From Candidatus Micrarchaeota archaeon (GTDB lineage: Archaea > Micrarchaeota > Micrarchaeia > Anstonellales > Bilamarchaeaceae): a stretch of 64,000 nucleotides of DNA. The DNA lies in the NCBI GenBank assembly GCA_043821365.1, contig JBDRCX010000003.1, positions 32,001 to 96,000 on the forward strand, in the 5' to 3' direction. The position numbers and the translations under genes were made by a program. A model generated the notes under the pieces. The model searched no databases, was not told the DNA's origin, and saw only the letters and a list, made by a program, of their open reading frames with translations. This document shows positions 20,239 to 55,106 of this stretch, piece by piece (position 1 is the stretch's first letter; each line of letters begins with the position of its first letter).

Positions 20239-21228
20239 ATGCCAAAAAATCAGACAGAGTCCAGAAAAAAAGACCATGTTGATCTAGTTGTTGATGATGG
20301 AGCACAATATGCAAAAACAACTGGATTCGAACGTATGGATTTTGTCCATAATGCATTGCCAGAAATATCTCTTCAATCAGTTGATCTTTCAACAAAGTTC
20401 TTCAATAAAAAAATCAAATATCCAATTCTAATAACTGGAATGACTGGTGGGTATTCTGATGCTGAAAAAATCAATAGACAACTAGCAGCAGCTGCACAGA
20501 AATACGGTCTTGCATTTGGTGTTGGTTCACAAAGAGCAATGATCGAAAAACCAGAATTAGCAAAAACATATAAAGTTCGTGATGTTGCTCCAGATATTCC
20601 ATTACTCTCCAATATCGGTGCATTTCAACTTAAGAAATATTCAACCAAACAAATTGAATCATTGGTTCAAGATATCGAGGCAGATGCTCTTGCAATCCAT
20701 CTTAATGCACTTCAAGAGGTTATCCAACCAGAAGGCGATACTGATTTTACTGGAATTTTAGCTGCAATAGAGAAAACATGTGACGGATTGTCAGTTCCTA
20801 TTATTGTTAAGGAAACTGGTGCAGGCCTTAGTCAGGATGTTGCAATTGCATTGAAAAAAGCAGGTGTGAAATATTTGGATGTTGCAGGAGCAGGTGGAAC
20901 ATCCTGGAGTGTTGTTGAATATCTTCGTGGTGGTGGTGTTCCTGGTTTTGAAAACTGGGGGATTCCAACTGCTGAATCAATAATCCAATGTAAGGGAGTT
21001 CTGCCAATAGTTGCTACTGGTGGAATCAGAACTGGTGTTGATGGTACAAAAGCAATAGCTCTTGGTGCAGATATGTGTGGTGCAGCCTACCCATTCATCA
21101 AATCATTAAAGAAAAACAAACTAAATCAATTTATAGAGATTTTTGAGAAGCAAATGGCAATATCAGCTTATCTTACTGGTTCTAAAACTATTTCTGATCT
21201 AAAAAAGGCCAAACTTCGATTTTTGTAA
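20239..21228 (+). CDS. fni: Type 2 isopentenyl-diphosphate isomerase (FMN)
   Basis: RKKDHV, MTGG, GVGSQR, HLNALQE, VKETGAG, DVAGAGGTSW and ATGGIRTG. Confidence 0.96.
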   Translation: MPKNQTESRKKDHVDLVVDDGAQYAKTTGFERMDFVHNALPEISLQSVDLSTKFFNKKIKYPILITGMTGGYSDAEKINRQLAAAAQKYGLAFGVGSQRAMIEKPELAKTYKVRDVAPDIPLLSNIGAFQLKKYSTKQIESLVQDIEADALAIHLNALQEVIQPEGDTDFTGILAAIEKTCDGLSVPIIVKETGAGLSQDVAIALKKAGVKYLDVAGAGGTSWSVVEYLRGGGVPGFENWGIPTAESIIQCKGVLPIVATGGIRTGVDGTKAIALGADMCGAAYPFIKSLKKNKLNQFIEIFEKQMAISAYLTGSKTISDLKKAKLRFL

Positions 21229-23555: not shown

Positions 23556-24899
23556 ATGGAATTTAAAGAAGTTACTGACGAAGAAATATTGGAAAGAGTT
23601 GCGAAAGACAATGTAAAATTTGTGAATCTGCAATTCACTGATCTTTTTGGTGTTGTTAAGAATGTTACAATTACTTCTGAACATCTTGAAGATTCACTCG
23701 AAAGTGGAACCTGGTTTGATGGCTCTTCAATCGAAGGGTTTGCAAGAATCCATGAAAGCGACATGTTTTTGAAACCAGATAAAGACACGTATGTTTCAAT
23801 CCCATGGTTACATTCTGCTGATGGTAATACTGCGAGGTTGATTTGTGATATATATAACGCAGATGGAAAGCCGTTTGAGGGAGCTCCAAGAACAATTCTA
23901 AAAAAAGTATTAGCAGAAGCAAAAGAACTTGGATATGAATATAATACTGGACCAGAACTAGAATTTTTTCTTTTCAAAAAAGAGAATTGTAAATTGCAAC
24001 CACTTCCACATGATAAGGGTGGCTATTTTGATTTAAGTATGGATCATGCCTATGAAATAAGAAGAGACATGGCCATAGCATTAGGAAAATTTGGTATAGC
24101 TGTTGAAGCACTTCATCATGAAGTTGCGGTTGGTCAGCATGAGATTGATTTTAGATATGGTGATGCTCTAAAAACTGCTGATAATGCAACAACAATGCGA
24201 TATGTAGTGAAAGCTGTTGCAGAAAAACATGGTTTACATGCTACTTTTATGCCAAAGCCAATTACGGGTATAAATGGCAGTGGTATGCACATCCATCAGA
24301 GTCTTTTCAAAGATGATGTCAATCTATTCTTTGATGGGTCTGATTCTCATAACATGTCTTCACTTGCAAAAAATTTCATTGCCGGACAATTGAAACATAT
24401 TCGTGGTATGTGTGCGATAACTTCACCCACAGTCAATTCATACAAAAGGCTTACTCCGGGGTATGAAGCCCCAGTTTATTTAAGCTGGGCAAGAACAAAT
24501 CGTTCTGCATTAATTCGTGTGCCTGCCATCAAGAAAGATAAGCCAAAAGCTGCTCGTATTGAATTACGTTGCCCAGATCCATCCTGCAATATTTATCTTG
24601 CATTTGCAATAATGTTAAAGGCTGGCCTGGATGGAATAAAGAATAAACTTGAACCACCAGTACCTGTAGAAGAAGATCTTTATGAGTTTGATGATAATAA
24701 ACTTTCAAAACTCAATATTGCACAACTTCCCTATTCTTTATTTGAGGCAACAAAAGAAATGAAAAAGAGTGAGCTTGTAAAAGATGTTCTGGGAGAAACA
24801 ACTTTCAACAAGTATATTCATGCAAAGATTTCTGAATGGGATGAGTACAGATTACAAGTTACCGAGTGGGAGCTTGATCGCTATCTGGAAAGTTATTGA
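23556..24899 (+). CDS. glnA: Glutamine synthetase type I
   Basis: FDGSSIEGF, GPELEFF, HHEVAVGQHEI, FMPKP, NGSGMHIHQSL, NRSALIRVP and RIELRCPDP; SD GGAGG before ATG 23556. Confidence 0.98.
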   Translation: MEFKEVTDEEILERVAKDNVKFVNLQFTDLFGVVKNVTITSEHLEDSLESGTWFDGSSIEGFARIHESDMFLKPDKDTYVSIPWLHSADGNTARLICDIYNADGKPFEGAPRTILKKVLAEAKELGYEYNTGPELEFFLFKKENCKLQPLPHDKGGYFDLSMDHAYEIRRDMAIALGKFGIAVEALHHEVAVGQHEIDFRYGDALKTADNATTMRYVVKAVAEKHGLHATFMPKPITGINGSGMHIHQSLFKDDVNLFFDGSDSHNMSSLAKNFIAGQLKHIRGMCAITSPTVNSYKRLTPGYEAPVYLSWARTNRSALIRVPAIKKDKPKAARIELRCPDPSCNIYLAFAIMLKAGLDGIKNKLEPPVPVEEDLYEFDDNKLSKLNIAQLPYSLFEATKEMKKSELVKDVLGETTFNKYIHAKISEWDEYRLQVTEWELDRYLESY

Positions 24900-25784
24900 A
24901 ATAGTTCAGTGGTGAAATATCTCTCTCCATTATCTGGAAGTAGGGAAATCACTATTCCTTTTATTTTTTTCGCAGTTTGAATTGCAGCCCACATTGATGC
25001 CCCACTACTAATGCCAACCAATATACCTTCTTTTTTTGCTAAATTTCTTGCAGTTTCAAAAGCATCATTGTCACTAACATAGATTATTTCATCTACTTCT
25101 TTTCTATTGAATATTTTTGGAACAATTGATGTTTGCATATTTTTTAACCCCTGAATCTTATGGTTTGGGTATGGTTCTGCTGCAATAATTTTAATTTCTG
25201 GATTTTTTTCTCTTAGTAATTTTCCAACTCCCATAACTGTTCCTCCAGTTCCAATACCAGAAACAAATGCCCTTATTTCACCGTCAGTCTGTTCCCATAT
25301 TTCATTTGCTGTTTGTGCATAATGTGCCAATGGGTTGTTTTCATTGGAATATTGATCTGGCATAAAATATTTTTCTGGATTTTTTTCTAATTTTTTATTT
25401 GCAAGATTTATGGCCCCATCAATCCCAAGTTCTGCTGGTGTTAATGTTATCTTTGCACCAAATGCAGTCATTGCTTTTCTTCGTTCCAAACTTGCATTTT
25501 CTGGCATAACTATTTCAATTTGGTACCCTCTCACTGCACCAATCATGGCAAGAGCTATACCAGTATTTCCAGATGATGCTTCAATTACAATTCGATTTTT
25601 TATCAAATCCAATTTTTCTGCAGCTTCAATCATTTTCTGAACAGGACGATCTTTTATGCTGCCACCAGGATTTCTACCTTCTAATTTTGCGTATAATTCG
25701 TTTTCACTTAATCTATTTATTCTAACTAACGGAGTCCATCCTATTGTCTCCAGTATGTTAGCAGGCCAACCACCTATTTTTCAT
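24893..25784 (-). CDS. cysM: Cysteine synthase (CysK/CysM family) with a +1 frameshift between the SD-led ATG and the main frame
   Basis: Main frame is open 25780-24893: NILETIGWTPLVRI, KLEGRNPGGSIKDR (PLP Lys), SSGNTG, GIGTGGT and GISSGA. No in-frame ATG/GTG/TTG before 25633; the SD-led ATG at 25784 is in another frame. Confidence 0.85.
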
Positions 25785-25870
25785 TTTTACACCTCATAAA
25801 AATTCTGATTTTTATTAAGTAAAAATGTACGACATTTTTACACCTCATAAATTTTTATTAAATAAAAATG
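25782..25870. repeat. Imperfect tandem duplication with nested inverted repeats in the cysM upstream region
   Basis: CATTTTTACACCTCATAAA at 25782-25800 and 25833-25851; GTAAAAATGT-ACG-ACATTTTTAC hairpin between them. Confidence 0.8.
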
Positions 25871-25919
25871 AAATTTTGAAGTTTATAAACTAATGTAACA
25901 ATTTTGTTTTGGTTAGATG

Positions 25920-26024: not shown

Positions 26025-26150
26025 CGGGCCCAGAGGGATTTGAACCCTCGACCTGCGGATTCCACCTTTTACCAAAAAGTGGAGCCAAAAGTGGCTCTCC
26101 ATTTGATAAAATTAAAAGTCCGACGCTCTACCAAGCTGAGCTCTGGGCCC
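26025..26150 (-). tRNA. tRNA-Lys(UUU) with a 52-nt intron at 37/38 (26112-26061)
   Basis: GGGCCCA/TGGGCCC acceptor stem, G73, D arm GCTC/GAGC, anticodon loop CT-TTT-A|A, T arm GAGGG-TTCAAAT-CCCTC; the intron forms a 7-bp outer helix TTTTATC/GGTAAAA of a relaxed BHB; no encoded CCA. Confidence 0.93.
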
Positions 26151-52997: not shown

Positions 52998-55106
52998 TTA
53001 GCTTGGTAATGAAGGTGGCATTGATGATGCACCTAGTGTACACGCATCTGCTACCTTAACAAAGTATCCTTCGCCAGGTCTTATAGCTGTTGCTTTTTCC
53101 CATTGCCATGCTGTGGTATTGAATTTCCATGGGCCACTTACCACATTACAATCGCCTACAAAATCACTCCAGCTAGTGGATGTATAGGCTCCACCAAACC
53201 CAACCCAACCTGCGGATACTGCCCATCCATTTGTGTATTCCATTTTAGATGAACCAGTAAATGTTATTTTGCATGGTTCTGTTGTTTTTACCCACATTGC
53301 ATTTGGCACTGGAACAACATCACCAACATCAACTCCATATCCGCTTGTTACGTATGACCTGTAAGCTTGGTCATGTACATACACTTGAGATATGTCACAA
53401 GTTGTAGCAGTAACAACAGCTTCAGACCTTGAACTGCTACTTCCCATCACTGGCGATGATATCAGGTTCCATCCTGTTTGCAATGTAATCGAGTATGTAT
53501 AATTATATTCTTCTGGTAAGGTTGGTATCCCAGCATCTTCATCTTGGTATGGTGTGCTTAATGAACTTGCACATGATGCTTCACCATTGCTTTCCATGAT
53601 AGTTGTACTATCTAAGAAATTTATCTGGCATAATGCATTAGTGTTGCCAAAATGTTTGTATGGTGGTGAACTAAAAGTCCAGCTTGTTGCGGCATTGGCA
53701 TTTGTTTGATATTTAAATCCAACAAAATCAACTATTTCACCATATTCAACAGTGAATGAAGCCCCATTGTCTTCAGTTGCTTGTTTTGTTTCTAGCAGTG
53801 TACCTTTGTATTGTCCATTGACAACTGCAACTGAGTACATATTCACCCAACCATCAATATTTGTGGTTAATGAATAATCTTCACTATCTGGGTAGTTGTT
53901 TACAGCAACCTCAAATGTTACTGGTAATGTATCTATTTGCCAATTTGGAGTCATTCCATCAGCTATACAAGCCCCATTAGAACATCCATAACCTGATGGA
54001 CAAGTTTCATAACTCACATCCCATTGATCACCATTACAAGTTATTTCAGCTACAGTGCTCAAATCTTTACAATAATCGCTTGCAGAAGCAAACAAAGTGC
54101 CGTTACTGTAATAGATATAATTTGTTCCTGCATTGTATCTATCTTTTCCTTGATCTGTCTCTTTACAATATTTGGATATTGTTTCTGTTTCTTCTATACA
54201 TGCACCATCTGAACATTCATATCCAGAAGGACACAATACAGTTGTTGTATATCCAACATCTCCACTGCACCATGTTTCTATTAGGTAGTCTCCGCTACAA
54301 TAATCAGTTGCGGTTACTCCATTTACAGTGCGTGTACCTTTTGTATAGATATTGTATGCACCATTTGTTTCATCGGTGCTTGTACAATCATATTCCGAAT
54401 CTTCTCCACTATTTTCTTCTTCAATATCTACATTATACAAAATTTCTACACAATCAGAATCCAGACTATATAGTGTAATTGTGATATTGACATCGTTACC
54501 AGTGTAGATATGAGTTGTTCCATCTATGTTCAAAGTAGGATCCCAAACTGAAGGTGAGAAACTTAATTCTGCCTTGTCGATTGGTGTGGCTGGTTTAATT
54601 ATGTTGTCCAAAGTTACTGTATACCCATTGTCAGTTAAACTTTCATCAATGCATAATTCTTTTCCACCATGTGTTGGTCCATTATTTTCACTATCATATA
54701 ATTTGTAGAGTATCAATAATGGTGTTGAGCTGTAAGAACATTCACTTGTAGAAACTTTACAAAGTGCGTAGATACTGCCATTTTTACTAATGGTGAAAGT
54801 AGGTACGCCCTTCCCTTCAAGCTCCTGTAGGAAACCATATTTTCCACCGAGTGCACCTGTTGCTGCAGTGGTTATATAGAACGATTCATCTAGTTCTGGG
54901 TATACTATTGCTCCTGCAGTAGTGGTTGTATCAGAATCTAGAATAACACCTGTTGATGGGTCTTTCATATAAACATCAACATTTGAAACAGAAGGGGTGC
55001 CATACCCTGCTGGTCCATTGTTGACTGCAATAACAGTCAAAGGTGCTGTTTCAGCAAATGCCAATCCTAAAATCAGCATCATGATCATCAAATTCATTAT
55101 TTTCAT
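52998..55106 (-). CDS. Secreted Cys-repeat surface protein
   Basis: Signal peptide; two modules C-x-x-TD-x-G...DYC...E-x-x-C...CPSGY-x-C-x-x-GAC; C-terminal GWNLISSP domain. Confidence 0.75.
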   Translation of the reverse strand: MKIMNLMIMMLILGLAFAETAPLTVIAVNNGPAGYGTPSVSNVDVYMKDPSTGVILDSDTTTTAGAIVYPELDESFYITTAATGALGGKYGFLQELEGKGVPTFTISKNGSIYALCKVSTSECSYSSTPLLILYKLYDSENNGPTHGGKELCIDESLTDNGYTVTLDNIIKPATPIDKAELSFSPSVWDPTLNIDGTTHIYTGNDVNITITLYSLDSDCVEILYNVDIEEENSGEDSEYDCTSTDETNGAYNIYTKGTRTVNGVTATDYCSGDYLIETWCSGDVGYTTTVLCPSGYECSDGACIEETETISKYCKETDQGKDRYNAGTNYIYYSNGTLFASASDYCKDLSTVAEITCNGDQWDVSYETCPSGYGCSNGACIADGMTPNWQIDTLPVTFEVAVNNYPDSEDYSLTTNIDGWVNMYSVAVVNGQYKGTLLETKQATEDNGASFTVEYGEIVDFVGFKYQTNANAATSWTFSSPPYKHFGNTNALCQINFLDSTTIMESNGEASCASSLSTPYQDEDAGIPTLPEEYNYTYSITLQTGWNLISSPVMGSSSSRSEAVVTATTCDISQVYVHDQAYRSYVTSGYGVDVGDVVPVPNAMWVKTTEPCKITFTGSSKMEYTNGWAVSAGWVGFGGAYTSTSWSDFVGDCNVVSGPWKFNTTAWQWEKATAIRPGEGYFVKVADACTLGASSMPPSLPS

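Follow-up and report, generated by a model that had tools for sequence, protein, structure and literature searches.

The leader and the enzyme frame

The window analysed here is a 64,000-nucleotide stretch of contig JBDRCX010000003.1 (positions 32,001 to 96,000, forward strand) in assembly GCA_043821365.1 of a Candidatus Micrarchaeota archaeon (Anstonellales; Bilamarchaeaceae), a genome of 1.2 Mb in six contigs that is 87% complete (G000 in Table 1). On its minus strand lies a gene of the CysK/M (cysteine synthase) family, overlapped at its 5' end by a very short open reading frame (ORF), hereafter the leader (Table 1). The leader is headed by the Shine-Dalgarno (SD) sequence GAGGTG (25795-25790), followed by the spacer TAAAA and an ATG at 25784-25782, and its eight codons encode MKNRWLAC before a stop. 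The enzyme is encoded in the +1 frame relative to the leader, and this frame contains no ATG, GTG or TTG before position 25633, beyond the pyridoxal phosphate (PLP)-lysine motif SIKDR. When the U of the leader's UGC codon is skipped, reading continues as GCT AAC ATA CTG (ANIL), and the predicted product of such a shift is MKNRWLA joined to ANILETIG..., 296 aa in length, with the junction peptide WLAANILETIGWTPLVR. An initial annotation of this DNA, made from the letters alone, had described the SD-led frame overlapping the enzyme frame, the lack of a start codon until past the PLP-lysine motif and the recovery of ANILETIG by omission of one U; re-reading of the minus strand reproduced all three.

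In a profile search the enzyme scored 366.5 bits against the cysKM subfamily model TIGR01136 (cut-off 344.15; model positions 2-299), 345.9 against the cysM equivalog TIGR01138 (below its cut-off of 394.2) and 333.9 against the cysK equivalog TIGR01139 (below its cut-off of 350.95). Because neither equivalog cut-off is reached, the label cysM given in the initial annotation is not established; it holds as far as the CysK/M family and fails for CysM specifically. The deposited annotation of the gene (24893-25780, minus strand; protein P0002, 294 aa) starts the enzyme at an ATA at 25777, read as Met. Among the orthologous proteins (P0002-P0005), those of the relatives start too far downstream, at Met codons inside the gene, and so miss the true N-terminus, and one orthologue is annotated as a threonine synthase.

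The same arrangement is found in three related species. Two of these are congeneric: G015 (81% protein identity) reads ATG ACA AAA AGG TGG TTG GCC TGC TAA (MTKRWLAC); G024 (Candidatus Bilamarchaeum dharawalense, 74%) has the same leader as G015 but continues as TGC AAA TAT TCT TGA; and the fourth species (68%; L101/L102, from JGI and Logan contigs) reads ATG AAA CAA GGG TGG TTG GCC TGC TAA, without a run of A. Across these type-A loci (the window's own L001, L002/L017, L003 and L101/L102), the 14-nt core GGTGGTTGGCCTGC is invariant in all four species, and the SD and the ATG, which lies out of frame (-1) with respect to the enzyme, are also kept. Synonymous changes in the enzyme frame start directly after TGC (GCT/GCA, AAC/AAT, ATA/ATT and CTG/CTA/CTT). 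Over the enzyme ORF, ratios of nonsynonymous to synonymous substitution (dN/dS) were 0.05-0.11 at dS values from 1.4 to more than 3, with 0.07-0.11 for the window's gene against the three relatives, indicating that the gene has long been under purifying selection while the offset start was kept. The initial annotation had proposed following the offset ATG and the TGY-stop pair in relatives: the ATG and the TGC persist in all three, and the stop is missing in G024. The G015 orthologue (L002, G015:C41) also shows a frame change at an A9 run, GCAAAAAAAAATG, near codon 271 and close to the C-terminus, explicable as an assembly error, as transcriptional slippage or as decay.

CysK/M genes were found in 34 of the 176 genomes of the order. 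In about 100 cysK/M loci examined, only those of the four type-A species lack a canonical in-frame start. A metagenome scan for closer relatives returned only matches of at most 58% identity, which served as a control and added no family members; in all 80 of these homologues an ordinary start codon (ATG or GTG) precedes the IGNTP motif by 7-12 codons. At eight further cysK loci the enzyme lies in the +1 frame of a short ORF that begins at an SD-led ATG and contains a Cys codon, which brings the leader-bearing cysK loci to 12 in total. In every cysK leader an SD-like AGG or GGT starts ~12 nt ahead of the Cys codon, which is the register of Escherichia coli prfB, and the prfB-like geometry recognized in the initial annotation (an SD-like hexamer, 3 nt, a P-site codon and a sensor codon) thus recurs at all 12. 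In a maximum-likelihood tree of the enzymes, leader-bearing genes are spread over at least 3-4 separate clades, interspersed with bacterial-like sequences and with genes that start normally. The tree places the window's gene together with L105 and L103, and the leaders of these two show plain homology to MKNRWLAC; the relatives' versions read MTKRWLAC, MKQGWLAC, MKNRDLLC and MENGWFDC. The leader arrangement, conserved in four species and homologous at 12 cysK loci, is far beyond chance.

Table 1. Features of the leader locus in the window, with cysK leaders and related elements at other loci.
Feature	Position or locus	Strand	Basis or remark
Putative TATA box TTTATAAA, with conserved GTTACAT before it	25882..25889	-	Alignment of four type-A loci; putative promoter
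Extra SD-ATG cassette: GAGGTG 25846-25841, ATG 25835-25833, 6-codon upstream ORF MSYIFT-stop, hairpin GTAAAAATG/CATTTTTAC (9 bp)	25815..25851	-	Specific to the window genome
Leader SD GAGGTG	25790..25795	-	5 nt ahead of ATG; kept in all relatives
Zero-frame leader ORF ATG AAA AAT AGG TGG TTG GCC TGC TAA (MKNRWLAC-stop)	25758..25784	-	Direct reading
TGA that overlaps the leader ATG; upstream limit of the open enzyme (+1) frame	25781..25783	-	Frame reading
Internal SD-like element AGGTGG, 3 nt before the P-site codon	25770..25775	-	Inside the 14-nt core
Putative P-site codon GCC at the proposed shift	25764..25766	-	Position from family geometry
A-site Cys codon TGC, proposed sensor	25761..25763	-	Cys codon here in 12/12 cysK leaders
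Zero-frame stop TAA directly after TGC	25758..25760	-	Direct reading
CysK/M-family coding region, +1 frame, 289 codons and stop	24893..25762	-	TIGR01136, 1e-109; dN/dS against relatives
cysK leader ATG AAA AAC AGG GAT TTA CTT TGC (MKNRDLLC)	L105		Sister lineage; compare MKNRWLAC in the window
cysK leader ...GGG TGG TTT GAC TGC	L103
cysK leader ...AGG GAT TTA CGT TGC	L111
cysK leader ATG GAA AGG GGT TTA CTT TGC C	L113		Nearly the E. coli prfB site, UGC for UGA
cysK leader ...AGG AGT TTG CTT TGC	L118
cysK leader ...GGT GGC CGC CTT TGC	L014
cysK leader ...GGT GGC CTA CGG TGT	L112
cysK leader ...GGT GAC TAT CGG TGC	L009
Small helix-turn-helix (HTH) ORFs after Cys or Phe leaders	L007:1091-1390, L189:117-305, L194:104-295
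Small HTH ORFs after Cys or Phe leaders	L148:1287-1499, L177:1308-1604	-
Other copies of the upstream cassette	G000:C2 about 53030-53090, G000:C1 about 20790-20860
Other copy of the upstream cassette	G000:C6:588693	-	Minus-strand index

Putative sensor codons across the leader family

We defined the leader family by an SD-led start, a zero frame of 6-15 codons, an SD-like element, ~3 nt, a P-site codon and a sensor codon, together with a long ORF in the +1 frame and a zero frame that stops soon after; the window locus (25758-25795) contains every one of these elements. The leader consensus is GGA AGG GAT TTA CTT followed by a codon X for the amino acid of the controlled pathway. The window genome was scanned for SD-led short ORFs overlapping long +1 ORFs. 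A first version of the scan was too loose, returning mostly out-of-frame ATGs inside genes, and the refined version gave two cases besides cysK, both outside the window. One is proB (glutamate 5-kinase; TIGR01027, 4e-34; G000:C2:53093 onward, L123:594-1314), with the enzyme in the +1 frame of a leader reading ATG GAA CGG GAT TTA CTT CCA T, that is, MERDLL and then a Pro codon; the element (A/G)GG NNT TTA CTT CC(A/G) is common to five proB genes of the order whose mutual identity is only 37-40%, the enzyme again being in the +1 frame. The other encodes an (R)-S-adenosylmethionine (SAM) hydrolase, which releases methionine from SAM (NF058624, 2e-40; G000:C6:351799 onward, L124/L201). Its leader, ...GGA AGG GGT TTA GAA ATG C, has a Met codon at the sensor position and occurs in three other lineages (L204, L215 and L216), and 16 relatives start normally. 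The window genome also has, outside the window, a hisD leader (L157, G000:C6:9897-9941, minus strand), MEDKKDLGRGLL followed by CTT CAC A with a His sensor, in whose +1 frame the histidinol dehydrogenase of 426 aa is encoded.

At all 37 tabulated enzyme-linked sites the sensor codon is cognate to the pathway of the gene in the +1 frame: TGC or TGT (Cys) at cysK (12/12), CCA or CCG (Pro) at proB and proC (9/9), CAC or CAT (His) at hisG and hisD (10/10), TGG (Trp) at trpE (2/2; TIGR01820, 7e-155) and ATG (Met) at the SAM hydrolase in its four lineages (4/4). At 17 of the 37 sites no ATG, GTG or TTG lies within reach in the +1 frame; at the other 20 no candidate +1 start has an SD, and every leader start has one. 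CUU occupies the P site at 25 of the 37. The pattern GGTG-N4-9-ATG-N3-30-RGGNNTTTRCTT was matched at 79 places, spread over 60 of the order's 176 genomes; the reversed control had 8 matches. A stricter version gave 43 matches against 1 for the control in 401 genomes of the phylum, including three families outside the order, and none in the 177 genomes of the phylum's two largest families. The suggestion of the initial annotation that a shortage of Cys-tRNA might trigger the shift is strongly supported by this sequence comparison, homologous leaders carrying Pro, His, Trp or Met codons on the matching genes.

Leaders of the same kind also precede ORFs other than those of biosynthetic enzymes. 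Small HTH ORFs (63-100 aa; HTH_7 or HTH_23 matches) follow Cys- and Phe-codon leaders (Table 1), and in G039 a leader-bearing HTH gene lies directly upstream of a normally started cysK; these small HTH proteins may be transcription factors made in response to amino-acid supply. Many His leaders are double (L152, L169, L172, L153, L173, L181-L183 and L190), in that a further GRDL(L/V)-His site follows 2-3 codons later in the +1 frame, and two successive shifts would lead to a small AbrB-like ORF (IRLDKKARLVLPLEIREA...). At L151, L158 and L162, the +1 frame of the first leader extends to the SD of a second.

The 16S rRNA of the window genome ends in ...GGAUAGAUCACCUCCA, with the anti-SD tail ...GAUCACCUCC. 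Duplex energies predicted between this tail and the 12 nt that precede the P-site codon were -9.8 kcal/mol for the window cysK leader and -10.3 and -10.9 kcal/mol for the consensus leaders, compared with -9.5 kcal/mol for the true leader SD, GAGGTG. Among 12-mers of the genome the mean is -3.1 kcal/mol, with 2.5% reaching -8 and 0.7% reaching -10, so that the predicted pairing of the SD-like elements with the 16S tail matches that of the true SD in strength. No significant RNA structure or bulge-helix-bulge (BHB)-like fold was found in the leader regions of the window and G015 cysK genes or of proB (z-scores 0.2-1.0), which argues against attenuator hairpins, stimulatory pseudoknots and BHB mini-introns. 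The genome has tRNA genes for Leu (GAG and UAG), Ala (GGC) and Cys (GCA). The CUU of most family members allows re-pairing on UUU or UUC, like that of prfB and Ty1; the P codon is GCC in the window locus and its three closest relatives, and GAC in L103.

Candidate mechanism, rival explanations and surroundings of the locus

From the observed frame architecture, its conservation, the purifying selection on the +1 ORF, the complementarity to 16S rRNA and the match between codon and pathway, we infer the ribosomal nature of the shift, its efficiency, the role of the SD-like element and the dependence on charged tRNA. Very probably, cysteine synthase is made through a programmed +1 ribosomal frameshift at an A site that stands empty when Cys-tRNA is scarce. 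Ribosomes would initiate at the SD-led AUG and translate MKNRWLA; once GCC occupies the P site and UGC the A site, AGGUGG would pair with the 3' end of the ribosome's own 16S rRNA, as in bacterial prfB. With plentiful Cys-tRNA(Cys), UGC would be read, UAA would come next, and only the eight-residue peptide would result. With scarce Cys-tRNA(Cys), the A site would stay empty, the ribosome would slip one base forward, read GCU and enter the enzyme frame. More enzyme would then restore cysteine and close a negative feedback loop. A cysteinyl-tRNA synthetase gene (CysRS) is present (G000:C6:32561-34222), so that charging of Cys-tRNA should report free cysteine. A CTT TGA match in the genome was discarded as a chance site inside this CysRS gene.

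It is probable, to a somewhat lesser degree, that Micrarchaeota, and possibly other archaea, carry out regulon-wide amino-acid sensing by hungry-codon +1 frameshifting through a portable leader of ~30-45 nt. Such a leader would combine a start headed by an SD, a brake in the form of an SD-like element, a slippery codon and a single sensor codon, and would turn its gene on only when the cognate charged tRNA is short. The proposed regulon comprises cysK, proB and proC, hisG and hisD, trpE, the SAM hydrolase, and small HTH or AbrB-like regulators.

Several points weigh against this reading. The concern raised in the initial annotation about poor re-pairing of GCC on CCU stands: the window locus has GCC in place of the slippery CUU that most family members use, and tRNA-Ala(GGC) keeps two of three pairs on CCU, which leaves both a P-site slip and out-of-frame binding of the incoming tRNA possible. 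We know of no demonstration that SD:anti-SD pairing stimulates frameshifting in archaea. No cysE (serine acetyltransferase, the supplier of O-acetylserine) was found above cut-off in the 87%-complete genome (best TIGR01172 score 24 bits), so that the substrate of the enzyme, and with it a part in the net production of cysteine, is no more than presumed; O-phosphoserine is one candidate substrate, and uptake of the substrate from outside is another possibility. At L103, L130, L014 and L009, an in-frame ATG or GTG lies near the site, without an SD. Finally, the genomes compared are related and do not constitute independent samples.

A +1 shift might also be real but constitutive, of fixed efficiency or "corrective", giving low expression with an A-site codon that is no regulated sensor. 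Ty1 and Ty3 do use hungry sense codons constitutively (PMC5009743), but a constitutive site would have no reason for an A-site codon that specifies the pathway product at 37 of 37 sites and for five amino acids, and the tandem sites with the same His codon look like sensors; we regard this alternative as unlikely. Slightly less likely still is a leader that acts as a separate regulatory upstream ORF, with the enzyme started independently at a non-canonical codon, either the ATA at 25777 used in the deposited annotation or the Ile codon of ANIL. Homologues tolerate N-termini only 1-3 residues ahead of "IL", which is compatible with such a start. The ATA was nonetheless rejected because it is not conserved, being AAA or AAG in the three relatives, and the Ile codon varies between ATA and ATT, is never ATG, and lies 13 nt from AGGTGG. 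The 17 family sites without a canonical +1 start, and the lack of an SD on the candidates at the others, also count against independent initiation, which leaves the constant +1 relation with its junction at the sensor codon unexplained. Termination and reinitiation at TGC TAA was likewise discarded, since G024 has AAA in place of the stop and no start codon follows.

That the gene is simply broken, by an assembly or sequencing indel in the A5 run after the ATG or as a recent pseudogene, was the null explanation of the initial annotation. One A fewer would restore MKIGGWPANIL, the product of a one-base error or of slippage would carry IGGWPANILETIGWTPLVR, and the G015 relative has a second frame break at its A9 run. 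The indel is refuted by the three further species that keep the offset ATG, one of them (L101/L102, in independent JGI and Logan assemblies) without the A-run and yet with the same frame offset, which also removes slippage at the run as a candidate. With the low dN/dS and the same design at dozens of other loci, a broken gene is very improbable. Frame repair at the RNA level, through transcriptional slippage or removal of a 3n+1-nt mini-intron, is equally hard to credit: BHB introns are numerous in this genome and an A5 run is present in all but one of the closest relatives, but the run is too short for efficient slippage and absent from L101, folding gave no helix-bulge structure, and neither mechanism explains the cognate sensor codons.

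Upstream of the leader, the window locus differs from those of its relatives. In these, the putative TATA box lies ~45-50 nt ahead of the leader ATG, whereas the window genome carries an extra SD-ATG cassette in between (Table 1), and an exact 19-nt direct repeat covers 25782-25800 and 25833-25851. As the three relatives lack the segment, we consider it an insertion of ~54 nt, placed between the conserved TATA box and the leader. A repeated cassette of ~50 nt, consisting of TTTATGAGGTGTAAAAATG, the hairpin GTAAAAATG/CATTTTTAC, a tiny upstream ORF and a T-rich tail, occurs immediately ahead of the starts of cysK, proB, a ferritin-like gene and one more gene. A tRNA-Lys(UUU) gene with a 53-nt intron (window 26025-26150, minus strand; Rfam, 53.8 bits) lies upstream of cysK in all four type-A loci; ARAGORN at default settings reported no tRNA in the window and thus missed it. 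Elsewhere in the genome, an unannotated ORF of 487 aa (G000:C6:53370-54833) overlapping a short ORF had no family match in the profile search.

Relation to known systems and significance

The leader resembles prfB (AGG GGG UAU CUU UGA C) in its SD-like hexamer 3 nt before the P-site codon, which is CUU in most family members. As at prfB, slow decoding of the A-site codon would drive the ribosome into the +1 frame, a zero-frame stop lies a short way on, and the gene product would relieve the shortage behind the pause. In the leaders, however, the A-site codon is a sense codon for an aminoacyl-tRNA, whereas that of prfB is a UGA stop read by its own product, and the site lies in an ORF of 6-15 codons common to unrelated archaeal enzymes instead of inside one conserved gene. 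The window locus further differs in having GCC for CUU; because both the UGA stop and the CUU are missing, we consider the window site prfB-like in its proposed action and not a member of the prfB class.

As in hisL, trpL and pheL attenuation (a short ORF with end-product codons) and in T-box control, a leader upstream of biosynthetic genes would read the supply of charged tRNA. The leaders described here would differ in changing the reading frame of the same ribosome, with no terminator or antiterminator RNA and with the enzyme frame overlapping the leader. Unlike attenuation leaders, they contain one or two sensor codons instead of runs, and single genes of a cluster have leaders of their own (proB and proC in G128 and G142). 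Of the yeast sites, Ty1 (CUU AGG C) likewise places a P-site CUU beside a slow sense codon; the window's GCC UGC U resembles Ty3 (GCG AGU U) in having an Ala P codon without good re-pairing; and it fits the form NCC UGN U of the antizyme site (UCC UGA U), antizyme being also a frameshift under metabolite feedback. At the Ty sites a rare tRNA fixes the ratio of products, and antizyme is metabolite-stimulated at a stop codon with a downstream pseudoknot; none of the three senses an amino acid to control its own synthesis.

Frameshifting at hungry codons has been known for decades from starvation experiments, and, to our knowledge, how archaea sense their amino-acid supply is largely unknown. Full-text literature searches found no publication on such frameshift leaders. 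Natural starvation-specific products of hungry-codon frameshifting were not known at the time of the 2016 review by Atkins (PMC5009743), and a 2021 review gives as established in archaea only the recoding of stop codons for selenocysteine and pyrrolysine and a single -1 frameshift, in fucA1 (PMC8211752).

If the proposed mechanism is true, the leaders would be the first natural case of hungry-codon frameshifting in gene regulation, and a natural sense-codon version of the prfB switch whose specificity should follow the sensor codon. They would act as compact, modular sensors at the level of translation, each specified by a single codon, for at least five amino acids, and the leader could become a programmable amino-acid-responsive part for synthetic biology. 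The annotation of such genes, now truncated at an internal Met, begun at ATA or begun at the GTG of the SD, would be corrected. In Micrarchaeota, the leaders would do what attenuation and T-box control do in bacteria, and the biosynthetic capacity credited to DPANN archaea would be revised.

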